DNA from: Escherichia coli
GTDB lineage: Bacteria; Pseudomonadota; Gammaproteobacteria; Enterobacterales; Enterobacteriaceae
Assembly: GCF_003334335.1 (NCBI RefSeq)
Contig: NZ_QOWQ01000017.1
DNA length: 64,000 nt
Reading direction: 5' to 3' (one strand)
The notes under the pieces are model-generated. The model saw only the letters and a list, made by a program, of their open reading frames with translations, had not been told where the DNA came from and searched no databases. Shown one piece after another: positions 55,114 through 57,858 of this stretch. A program made the position numbers and the translations under genes. Each line of letters starts with the position of its first letter. The stretch's first letter is position 1.

Positions 55114-56679
55114 TTATGCAGTTTTGGTGCGAATCAGGTAGTCAAAAGCACTCAGAGAGGCTTTGGCACCTTCGCCAGTGGCGATGATGATCTGCTTGTA
55201 CGGAACCGTCGTACAGTCACCCGCTGCGAACACGCCTTTCACGTTGGTTTCGCATTTCGCATCAATGATAATCTCGCCCATGCGGTTACGTTCGACTGCG
55301 CCTTCGAGCCAGTTGGTGTTCGGCAGCAGACCAATCTGGACGAAAATACCGGCCAGTTCGATGTTGTGAATATCGCCGCTGACACGATCTCGATATTCCA
55401 GACCAACGACTTTGCTGCCGTCGCCTTTCACTTCCGTGGTTTGCGCATTCAGAATAATGTCGACGTTTTTCAGGCTGCGCAGTTTGTCCTGCAGAACCTG
55501 GTCGGCTTTCATTTCTGGCGCAAATTCCAGCAGCGTTACGTGCTCAACGATACCCGCCAGGTCAATTGCCGCTTCCACGCCGGAGTTACCGCCGCCGATA
55601 ACCGCTACGCGTTTACCTTTAAACAGCGGGCCGTCGCAGTGCGGGCAGTAGGTCACGCCTTTGGTGCGATACTGATCTTCGCCCGGAACGTTCATGTTGC
55701 GCCATTTTGCACCGGTCGCCACGATAATGCTGCGTGCTTTCAGTACCGCGCCAGAAGCTGTTTCAATCTGATGCAGACCACCTTCAACTGCTGCTGGGAT
55801 CAGTTTGCTGGCGCTCTGGCTGTCGATCACATCAACGTCGTATTCATCAACGTGAACTTTCAGTGCGCCTGCCAGCTTCTGCCCTTCAGTCTTCGGTACA
55901 GAAATGTAGTTTTCGATATCAACGGTATCGAGGATCTGACCACCAAAACGTTCGCCCATCAGACCGGTACGGATGCCTTTACGTGCGGAGTAAATTGCTG
56001 CCGCTGCACCCGCCGGGCCGGAACCGACGATTAATACGTCATAAGCATCACGCTTGTTCAGCTCTTCTGCCGCACGTTTTTCCGCGCCAGTATCAATTTT
56101 GGCAACGATTTCAGTCAACGTCATGCGGCCCTGACCAAACTCTTTCCCGTTTACGAACACTGCCGGAACGCCCATCACGTTGCGATCGGTGATTTCGTTC
56201 TGGAAGGTGCCGCCGTCAATTGCAGTGTGCTTGATGCGCGGGTTCAGTACGCTCATCAGGTTCAGCGCCTGCACCACGTCCGGGCAGTTGTGGCAAGAGA
56301 GCGAGTAATAGGTTTCGAATTCAAAATCACCGTCAATATGGCGAATCTGCTCCAGCAGAGACTGCGCTTCTTTCGACGGATGACCACCGGTCCACAGCAA
56401 CGCCAGTACCAGCGAGGTGAACTCGTGGCCCAGCGGGGAGCCTGCAAAACGTGGCCCCTGGTTGGAACCTGGGTTGGTGATCAGGAAAGACGGCTTACGC
56501 ACCGGCAAGCTGTTATCTTCTTTAAAGGTGACTTTGTCTGACAGTTCTGCGATTTCAGCCAACAGTTCCTTGATTTCTGCCGATTTAGCGCTGTCATCCA
56601 GCGTGGCAATTAACTCAACAGGCTTGGTCAATTTCTCAAGGTAAGCCTTGAGTTGAGTTTTCATATTTGTGTCGAGCAT
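55114..56679 (-). CDS. ahpF: alkyl hydroperoxide reductase subunit F (flavoprotein disulfide reductase)
   Basis: 521 aa from MLDTNMK start with aggag RBS; redox CxxC motifs (CHNC, CPHC) and FAD/NAD folds. Confidence 0.95.
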
Positions 56680-56923
56680 GTTTATCTCCTGGGCTTTAAA
56701 CATCATCATGCAAGCGGCCTCTGCGGCTACCTGGATGCAGCTTGCATCATGGTGCGGGGAAGAAAATCGGGTGCCGCAGCACCCGAAGAATTAGGTGAAT
56801 TTCCGAAGTATTTCGCGTCAGAGCAAGGCGGCTAGCCTGTGAATCCCCGGGAGCTTACACAAGTAAGTGACCGGGGTGAGCGGGCGACGCCAACGCCGCT
56901 ATGGCGTGAAAGACGAAGGAAAT

Positions 56924-57487
56924 TTAGATTTTACCAACCAGGTCCAGAGACGGAGCCAGAGTTGCTTCACCTTCTTTCCATTTAGCCGGGCAAACTTCAC
57001 CTGGGTGAGAAGCTACGTACTGTGCTGCTTTGATTTTACGCAGCAGGTCAGACGCGTCACGGCCAATGCCTTCAGCGGTAACTTCGATTGCCTGGATGAT
57101 ACCCTGCGGGTCAACAACGAAGGTCGCACGGTCAGCCAGACCTTCATCTTCACGCATGTTGTCGAAGTTACGGGTCAGGGCGCCAGTCGGGTCGCCGATC
57201 ATCGCATATTTGATTTTAGCGATGGTTTCAGAACTGCTGTGCCATGCTTTGTGGGTGAAGTGAGTATCGGTAGATACTGCGTATACGTCTACGCCCAGTT
57301 TCTGCAGTTCTTCGTAGTGGTCAGCAACGTCACCCAGTTCGGTCGGGCATACGAAAGTAAAGTCAGCCGGGTAGAAGAAGAAGACGCTCCAGCGGCCTTC
57401 GGTATCTTTTTCGGTGATTTCGATGAATTCGCCGTTTTTGAATGCCTGGTTTTTAAAAGGTTTAATTTTGGTGTTAATCAAGGACAT
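56924..57487 (-). CDS. ahpC: alkyl hydroperoxide reductase subunit C (2-Cys peroxiredoxin)
   Basis: 187 aa; peroxidatic motif FTFVCPTE and resolving Cys near C-terminus (EVCP). Confidence 0.96.
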
Positions 57488-57858
57488 CTATACTTCCTCC
57501 GTGTTTTCGATGAGATGTAAGGTAACCAATTTTTGCCGATTCGGCTAATGCGTTTCCATTATCAAATCGATAAGTTTTACCTTACAACCTTCGTAAGACA
57601 ACTTTGTGAACTTTGCACCGCCAGCGGCGATAAAAAGTAAAATGGCCCCCTTTCCAGGTGACCGTGTAATCTGAACTACCCTTTGGTATCTTCAGTGCCT
57701 GCCTGCAGGCTGAGGTGTTGCCCTTACAAATGCAACAACGACATGGATTACAACACCCTCATAAACAAAGGGCAATCACCTGATCTAAGCTCTTACCTAT
57801 GACAGTGATAGGTTATGCCTTTTACTCGACTTTTGCACTGACTGAAAAGGACAAATTA
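57488..57858. promoter_or_regulatory. divergent ahpC / dsbG control region with OxyR-type inverted repeat (CTAT-N7-ATAG at 57797-57811)
   Basis: 371-bp spacer between divergent ahpC and dsbG; both are established OxyR regulon members; partial match to the ATAG-N7-CTAT OxyR motif seen at 57786-57822. Confidence 0.5.

Follow-up and report, generated by a model that had tools for sequence, protein, structure and literature searches.

The ahpC-ahpF spacer of Escherichia coli holds an ERIC repeat, a conserved intrinsic terminator and a hairpin cut by RNase III

Few proteins of E. coli are more abundant than AhpC and AhpF, with the AhpC decamer acting together with the AhpF dimer, and because this stoichiometry is unequal, unequal output of one operon is a fair question. 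Read-through terminators within the rpsU-dnaG-rpoD operon are intra-operon attenuators that set subunit stoichiometry, and double ahpC and ahpCF transcripts have been reported in other bacteria. Among extragenic repeats, the enterobacterial repetitive intergenic consensus (ERIC), also known as IRU or RU-1, was reportedly described by Sharples and Lloyd in 1990 and by Hulton and colleagues in 1991. Published accounts of ERIC list its length, terminal inverted repeats (TIRs), TA termini and long RNA hairpin as family features, put the number of K-12 copies, enumerated genome-wide, at 19–21, and report that ERICs beside stop codons in Yersinia change the stability of the upstream mRNA. RNase III cleavage sites have been reported in ahpC-ahpF, pflB-pflA and yajQ (Gordon, Cameron & Pfleger 2017).

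Each module that we describe here belongs to a known class, and the RNase III site and the terminator 3' end of this locus have already been published. Our analysis establishes the identities and boundaries of the elements, their conservation and covariation, and their polymorphism in the E. coli population, whereas the RNA 3' ends, the dependence on RNase III, the cleavage in vitro, the effect on ahpC half-life and the 5'-monophosphate (5'-P) ends come from published experiments, which we mapped onto the sequence. We conclude, with a probability of roughly 0.85, that the spacer consists of an ERIC, a conserved intrinsic terminator and a hairpin cut by RNase III, with termination and processing setting ahpC above ahpF. 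The original prediction, made from the sequence alone, that attenuation or processing favors ahpC was essentially right and is largely covered by published data (Term-seq ends, RNase III site and 5'-P ends).

The spacer occupies positions 56680–56923 (244 bp) of the window, the whole 64-kb stretch of DNA analyzed, between the end of the ahpC stop codon at 56924 and the ahpF ATG at 56679, as originally predicted. Alignment showed a 100% match to positions 639509–639752 of MG1655, and the gene ends flanking the spacer matched K-12 b0605 exactly over the aligned stretch. The region is K-12-like, with ahpCF lying between dsbG and uspG. The spacer had been called unusually long, which holds in comparison with a typical operon junction but not with ahpC-ahpF spacers generally, as 73 such spacers from the sampled loci ranged from 68 to 410 bp with a median of 135 bp. 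It had also been called GC-rich, and here the difference is modest (55.3% versus 50.3% for the whole window). The inverted repeats named in the original prediction are all present, although their true positions differ from those given by between one and a few bases. The repeat given at 56769–56782 is found at 56770–56783 (ggtgccgcagcacc), where it forms the core of the terminator stem TCGGGTGC/GCACCCGA (56767–56786), and the segment described as cccggg-centred is really the arm pair CCCCGGGAGCTTAC (56845–56858) and GTAAGTGACCGGGG (56863–56876) within the ERIC palindrome. That description of the structure was incomplete, since over half of the spacer, this segment included, is a 127-bp ERIC. 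Folding, which had been proposed as a check, gave a minimum free energy (MFE) of −87.6 kcal/mol for the whole spacer transcript (z = −2.8 against shuffled controls); for the spacer, and likewise for the terminator and the ERIC described below, the structure exceeds chance. None of the ERIC, the terminator and the RNase III hairpin is annotated in NC_000913.3. The coordinates of the features are summarized in Table 1.

Table 1. Features of the ahpC-ahpF locus in window coordinates
Feature	Position	Strand	Evidence
ahpC CDS (187 aa)	56924..57487	-	ORF and RefSeq annotation at best matches; stop codon TAA at 56926-56924
ERIC/IRU repeat, 127 bp	56798..56924	.	Arms, core match, full-length alignment with other copies, folding of both strands
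ERIC central core GTGAATCCCCGGGAGCTTACACAAGTAAGTGACCGGGGTGAGCG	56839..56882	+	Degenerate core pattern, 0 mismatches
Intrinsic terminator/attenuator of ahpC	56759..56786	-	Consensus scan, folding, Term-seq, conservation, covariation
Hairpin with published RNase III site	56704..56751	-	Fold; cleavage data in vivo and in vitro (Gordon 2017); sequence conservation
5'-monophosphate processing sites	56700..56701	-	Lacoux 2020, coordinate mapping
ahpF Shine-Dalgarno AGGAG	56686..56690	-	Sequence; 6 nt upstream of ATG
ahpF CDS	55114..56679	-	True start is the ATG at 56679

A scan with the degenerate ERIC core pattern revealed a single match in the window, where 0 were expected by chance. The PCR primers ERIC1R and ERIC2 are directed at this core. 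The repeat is an imperfect palindrome with outer arms at 56798–56824 and 56898–56924 and perfect 7-bp TIRs (AATTTCC/GGAAATT). The terminal GGAAATT finishes on the final base of the ahpC TAA, so that the ERIC abuts the coding sequence; its flanks are TA on the ahpC side, within the TAA stop codon, and CA on the other side. With the 127-bp repeat as query and a cut-off of E ≤ 1e-3, we counted 41,233 ERIC places across the 5,426 complete E. coli genomes. A genome had a median of 8 and at most 15 of them, and strain CJ236, whose genome is of K-12 length, had 11. The best places outside the ahp locus were rpsB-tsf, the interval between a GH31 gene and ybiT, and the region upstream of gyrA, and the spacer ERIC aligned end to end with these E. 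coli copies at 72–74% identity. The 127-bp length, the conserved core, the dispersed copies in transcribed intergenic positions and the short, internally deleted variants are all those of the ERIC family.

The REP/BIME consensus, with which a comparison had been suggested, had no match within 56680–56923. A REP/BIME cluster might have been expected from the REP/PU-like palindromes in the equivalent slot of approximately 30 of 70 related enterobacterial spacers, but the sole good match to the consensus in the 64-kb window lies at 1289–1324 on the plus strand (GTCGGATGCGACGCTGCCGCGTCTTATCCGACCTAC, two mismatches), and the repeat of the spacer aligns with ERIC copies instead. This reading is refuted for the window, and we give it virtually no weight.

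RNA folding predicted a single long stem-loop for the ERIC on either strand, the hairpin characteristic of the family, with −46.1 kcal/mol (z = −3.3) for the ahpCF mRNA strand and −70.5 kcal/mol (z = −8.9) for the opposite strand. In all copies tested, the ERIC strand reading GTGAATCCCC... was more stable than its complement by 6–24 kcal/mol; the ahpCF mRNA carries the less stable strand and the rpsB-tsf mRNA the more stable one. The rpsB-tsf copy (L085:601–717; −65 versus −51 kcal/mol), transcribed in the stabler orientation and thus opposite to that of ahpCF, likewise lies within an operon whose two genes have unequal expression. An Rfam search of 56000–57600 (E ≤ 10) returned no family that reached its gathering threshold, and the best scores, 22.8 bits for V_AS5 (threshold 96) and 19.4 bits for CssrA (threshold 93), both fell over the ERIC. 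These sub-threshold matches to V_AS5 (RF02818, a Vibrio antisense RNA) and CssrA (RF02798, a Shigella sRNA), located at 56799–56969 on the plus strand, probably reflect ERIC-like sequence within those families, and the seed sequences of both may be ERIC-derived.

Population analysis revealed that the ERIC is polymorphic at this site. An alignment of representative genomes distinguished three spacer alleles. Of the 5,426 complete E. coli genomes, 5,423 matched the locus query, and all but 3 of these (5,420) had one of the three: a 244-bp spacer with the full ERIC (approximately 1,764 genomes), a 170-bp spacer that keeps both ERIC ends and is missing the central 74 bp (2,545 genomes), and a 128-bp spacer with no ERIC, found for example in O157:H7 (1,111 genomes). 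Approximately 20% of E. coli genomes therefore have no ERIC here and approximately 47% have the short form, and because some two thirds of the genomes lack the repeat or have only a truncated copy, it is not essential to the mechanism. The ERIC-less allele differs at 14 nt and offers no clean empty site, so that insertion or excision of the ERIC is not exactly reconstructible. The 115 nt adjoining ahpF showed no variation in five aligned E. coli sequences.

The equivalent slot in relatives was compared in sampled loci that did not include Salmonella and Klebsiella reference genomes, metagenomic contigs being used in their place. A full ERIC with matching position and orientation was found in Citrobacter werkmanii, an Enterobacter, Superficieibacter electus and a soil metagenome-assembled genome, and short ERIC forms were also found in E. 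albertii and metagenomic relatives. Among 70 distinct metagenomic spacers (L089–L196), 34 carried a full ERIC, approximately 6 a short ERIC and approximately 30 REP/PU-type palindromes, which also occupied the slot in three further loci (L010, L012 and L015). Since ERICs, short ERICs or REP palindromes are found in this slot, the stretch from the ahpC stop codon to the terminator appears to be a place where extragenic repeats can land and be tolerated. The Superficieibacter electus ERIC (L018:2065–2191) was 95% identical to the K-12 copy, compared with 70% at synonymous third positions of ahpC and 71% in the terminator region; this similarity reflects either strong selection on the ERIC or transfer or conversion.

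These observations bear on whether the ERIC is itself regulatory. Ribosomes terminating at the ahpC stop codon would, on such a reading, melt the base of the hairpin and so uncover or mask a site for RNase E, tuning ahpC mRNA stability and AhpC:AhpF, and the three alleles would be functional variants. The contact of the ERIC with the stop codon is in keeping with this, as are its recurrence, with site and orientation unchanged, in Citrobacter, Enterobacter and Superficieibacter as well as in 34 of the 70 metagenomic spacers, and the excess identity of the Superficieibacter copy (95%, versus 70% at the synonymous sites). However, about a fifth of E. coli genomes lack the ERIC and nearly half (~47%) lack its central 74 bp, unrelated REP-type palindromes fill the slot in relatives, and the mRNA has the weaker-folding strand, and we consider a regulatory ERIC unlikely. 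Its distribution suggests an old, non-essential insertion that would be a functional passenger and neutral. Two points count against the passenger reading: orthologous ERICs persist here in several genera, one of them 95% identical to the K-12 copy, and ERICs beside stop codons reportedly change upstream mRNA stability in Yersinia. Our literature search found nothing specific on ERIC in connection with ahpC, ERIC catalogues lying outside this search, and a search for ahpC in Term-seq papers likewise gave nothing specific. The 244/170/128-bp allele series and the interchange of ERIC and REP in relatives provide a ready-made test of whether 3' UTR repeats matter.

The original prediction saw no T-tract terminator in the spacer, and this was wrong. 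A consensus scan of the minus strand revealed TCGGGTGC-TGCG-GCACCCGA at 56786–56767 followed by TTTTCTTCCC, which in the transcript corresponds to a stem-loop UCGGGUGC-UGCG-GCACCCGA followed by the U-tract UUUUCUUC at 56766–56759. The stem has 8 perfect base pairs, of which 6 are GC pairs, with a loop of 4 nt and the tail TTTTCTTC, and the tract directly 3' of it is interrupted (UUUUCUU, or TTTTCTT in the DNA). The predicted fold of this hairpin is −16.6 kcal/mol (z = −4.8). Term-seq placed RNA 3' ends in the same sequence context at K-12 positions 639668 (two data sets) and 639670 (one data set) (Adams 2021), which correspond to 56764, the third U of the tract, and 56762, the C after the fourth U. 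A lack of RNA 3' ends in the spacer had been named as evidence that would refute the original prediction; with these ends in the U-tract, that refutation does not apply. At 160 nt from the stop codon, the terminator 3' end is labeled 'orphan' on account of this distance (Adams 2021); the terminator itself is 137 nt downstream of that codon because the ERIC is interposed. The same Term-seq study reports another orphan RNA 3' end on the ahpC strand, at approximately 57636 of the window (K-12 638796), in the dsbG-ahpC intergenic region 149 nt 5' of the ahpC start.

The terminator is conserved well beyond Escherichia. An equivalent hairpin with a U-rich tail was present in all 22 Enterobacterales ahpC-ahpF spacers examined (−10.8 to −17.1 kcal/mol), and in Pantoea, Erwinia, Providencia, Brenneria and Arsenophonus the ahpF ribosome-binding site follows it immediately. 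In a dedicated alignment of this hairpin (17 sequences), whose loop is variable, 98.5% of cells were paired, compared with 26–48% in slid controls, and three of the eight pairs had changed on both sides. The covariation score was 0.279 versus 0.153 in shuffles, with none of 500 shuffles reaching the observed value. A simple scan found a terminator-like site in 26 of 68 ahpC-ahpF spacers, compared with 4.8% of shuffles. The stem CGGGUGC/GCACCCG is nearly letter-for-letter the same from Escherichia to Providencia, Arsenophonus and Brenneria (L014, L016, L021–L025 and L046), and some betaproteobacteria have a similar CCCGGGUGC...GC(A/G)CCCGGG stem 3' of ahpC (also L042, L057 and L076). Longer uninterrupted U-tracts tend to occur in species without the RNase III hairpin.

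A structured spacer that lacks a terminator and acts through RNA folding and processing only would account for the RNase III site and the 5'-P ends, since processing is real, but it is contradicted by the Term-seq 3' ends in the U-tract and by a canonical GC stem with U-tract that is conserved with covariation at the mapped ends; we regard it as extremely improbable. The interrupted U-tract and the fact that ahpF is expressed suggest that termination would be partial.

Downstream of the terminator, the inverted repeat atgcaagc/gcttgcat (56708–56715 and 56740–56747) lies within longer arms (56701–56721 and 56734–56754) that are 81% complementary. It belongs to a predicted hairpin with the lower stem CAUGAUGCAAG/CUUGCAUGAUG and a variable apical part. 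Gordon et al. (2017) place an RNase III site at K-12 639695 in the ahpC-ahpF intergenic region; the signal was rnc-dependent in vivo, and the RNA was cut by the purified enzyme. This position maps to 56737, in the upper stem of the hairpin, the coordinate being the peak of an RNA-seq coverage ratio and not necessarily the scissile bond. The half-life of ahpC mRNA was reported there as approximately 14 min in the wild type versus approximately 6 min in an rnc deletion, with ahpF stability unchanged, and the authors' model is that the upstream RNA, ending in the terminator stem, is protected from 3' exonucleases (Gordon 2017).

Mapping by tagRNA-seq identified 5'-P sites at K-12 639731 and 639732, and the part of that report dealing with ahpCF classes them as processing sites, not transcription start sites (TSSs), and names TSSs upstream of ahpC only (Lacoux 2020). 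They correspond to 56701 and 56700, 3–4 nt past the base of the hairpin and 21–22 nt before the ahpF ATG. Three more pairs (A171-U222, C170-G223 and G169·U224 in spacer numbering) can lengthen the helix, and because the extended helix puts the 5'-P sites at its base, RNase III may excise the whole hairpin; such an excision would also explain the mid-hairpin peak of the rnc/wild-type coverage ratio.

The hairpin is unremarkable by folding alone (z = −0.8 for a 97-nt segment), with 3 + 8 predicted basal pairs and another 6 that are interrupted, where RNase III substrates have approximately two helical turns; some genera have an uninterrupted run of 11–12 bp above a conserved internal mismatch. 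Its sequence is conserved in, and restricted to, Escherichia, Citrobacter, Enterobacter, Leclercia and Superficieibacter. None of the 13 consensus pairs showed compensated changes, and several uncompensated breaks were observed, so that the structure rests on thermodynamic prediction and the published cleavage. Among 50 distinct versions, the 5' arm included the uncompensated variants AUGAUUCAAG and AUGACGCAAG, and the 3' arm GCUUGCAUGAUGAUG was nearly constant. Metagenomic spacers entered the comparison through an exact match to the 3' arm, which biases that set; the unbiased, genome-derived set showed the same pattern, and the 3' arm GCUUGCAUGAUGAUGUUU (56698–56747 region, minus strand) was nearly invariant across genera.

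This asymmetry points to constraint on sequence rather than on pairing, and the ahpF-proximal part of the spacer may have a role beyond RNase III cleavage, in which a sequence-specific partner (for example a protein, an sRNA or a ribosome standby site) engages the 3' arm. Our literature search found nothing specific on Hfq or RIL-seq links to ahpC. The same asymmetry, with arms conserved in primary sequence without covariation, a 3' arm that is almost invariant and a 5' arm that tolerates pair-breaking changes, might indicate that the inverted repeat is not an RNA hairpin but a DNA element, for example a promoter for ahpF within the spacer or a site bound by a regulator. Several results stand against a DNA element, which we judge very unlikely: the consensus scan found no sigma-70-like match within the spacer, the ahpCF section of the tagRNA-seq report treats the 5' ends as processing sites rather than TSSs (Lacoux 2020), and Gordon et al. 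(2017) describe cleavage of the transcript by RNase III in vitro and an rnc-dependent signal in vivo. In addition, a gap of 24 nt between 8-nt arms would be atypical of a dimeric DNA-binding site. It is also rather improbable that the full, short and absent ERIC forms set heritable differences in AhpC:AhpF stoichiometry among E. coli lineages, in parallel with a sequence-specific partner of the ahpF-proximal 3' arm that controls ahpF translation.

The GGA of the ahpF Shine-Dalgarno was invariant in the cross-genus alignment. Alternative features around the ahpF start did not hold up. A 531-aa AhpF ORF starting at 56709, with 10 extra in-frame codons, was rejected because the extension is not conserved in other genera, and a mini-ORF from AUGAUGAUG had no conserved frame or stop across genera. 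A 7-bp helix, AUGUUUA/UAAACAU (56703–56697 and 56684–56678), that would mask the ahpF start appeared in the MFE structure only, was absent from the centroid and, by eye, was not conserved outside Escherichia. This helix would leave the Shine-Dalgarno in the loop, and the published 5'-P cut would destroy it.

In the combined model of ERIC, terminator and RNase III hairpin, transcription would start at one OxyR-controlled promoter 5' of ahpC and pass through ahpC and then the ERIC, whose transcript would fold into an extended, imperfect hairpin within the 3' UTR of ahpC. Some polymerases would stop at the terminator, yielding a monocistronic ahpC mRNA with a protective 3' hairpin, and the interrupted U-tract would let the remaining polymerases read through into ahpF. 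In the read-through RNA, the downstream hairpin of approximately 50 nt is cut by RNase III, which would give a stable ahpC RNA that ends at the terminator hairpin and an ahpF RNA with a leader of approximately 21 nt carrying the Shine-Dalgarno. Partial termination and processing together would leave more ahpC message than ahpF message. The question of unequal AhpC and AhpF output would thus be answered by known parts, a leaky terminator and RNase III processing, with the visible structure being mostly ERIC, and a precise annotation of the ahpC-ahpF locus is now possible.

Comparison with the known systems revealed close correspondence for each element. Like REP and BIME sequences in 3' UTRs, the spacer places a structured extragenic repeat 3' of a highly expressed gene and 5' of a terminator, but its repeat comes from a different sequence family and the REP consensus is absent. 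With ERIC/IRU, the element shares the length, core, palindrome, 7-bp TIRs, contact with a stop codon, transcribed intergenic position and short variants; unlike a typical ERIC it has TA at one flank only, and nothing essential differs. The hairpin has a short stem (approximately 11 bp in the lower part plus an interrupted upper part) and no covariation, in contrast to the usual RNase III substrate, and its site is identical to the ahpC-ahpF site of Gordon, Cameron & Pfleger (2017), where the RNase III cut stabilizes the upstream product, as in the group that also includes pflB-pflA and yajQ. The ahpC terminator differs from the rpsU-dnaG-rpoD type in lying far past its stop codon (137 nt) with an ERIC between, and it shares with that type a GC stem and U-tract between cistrons, 3' ends within the tract and a downstream gene that is still expressed.
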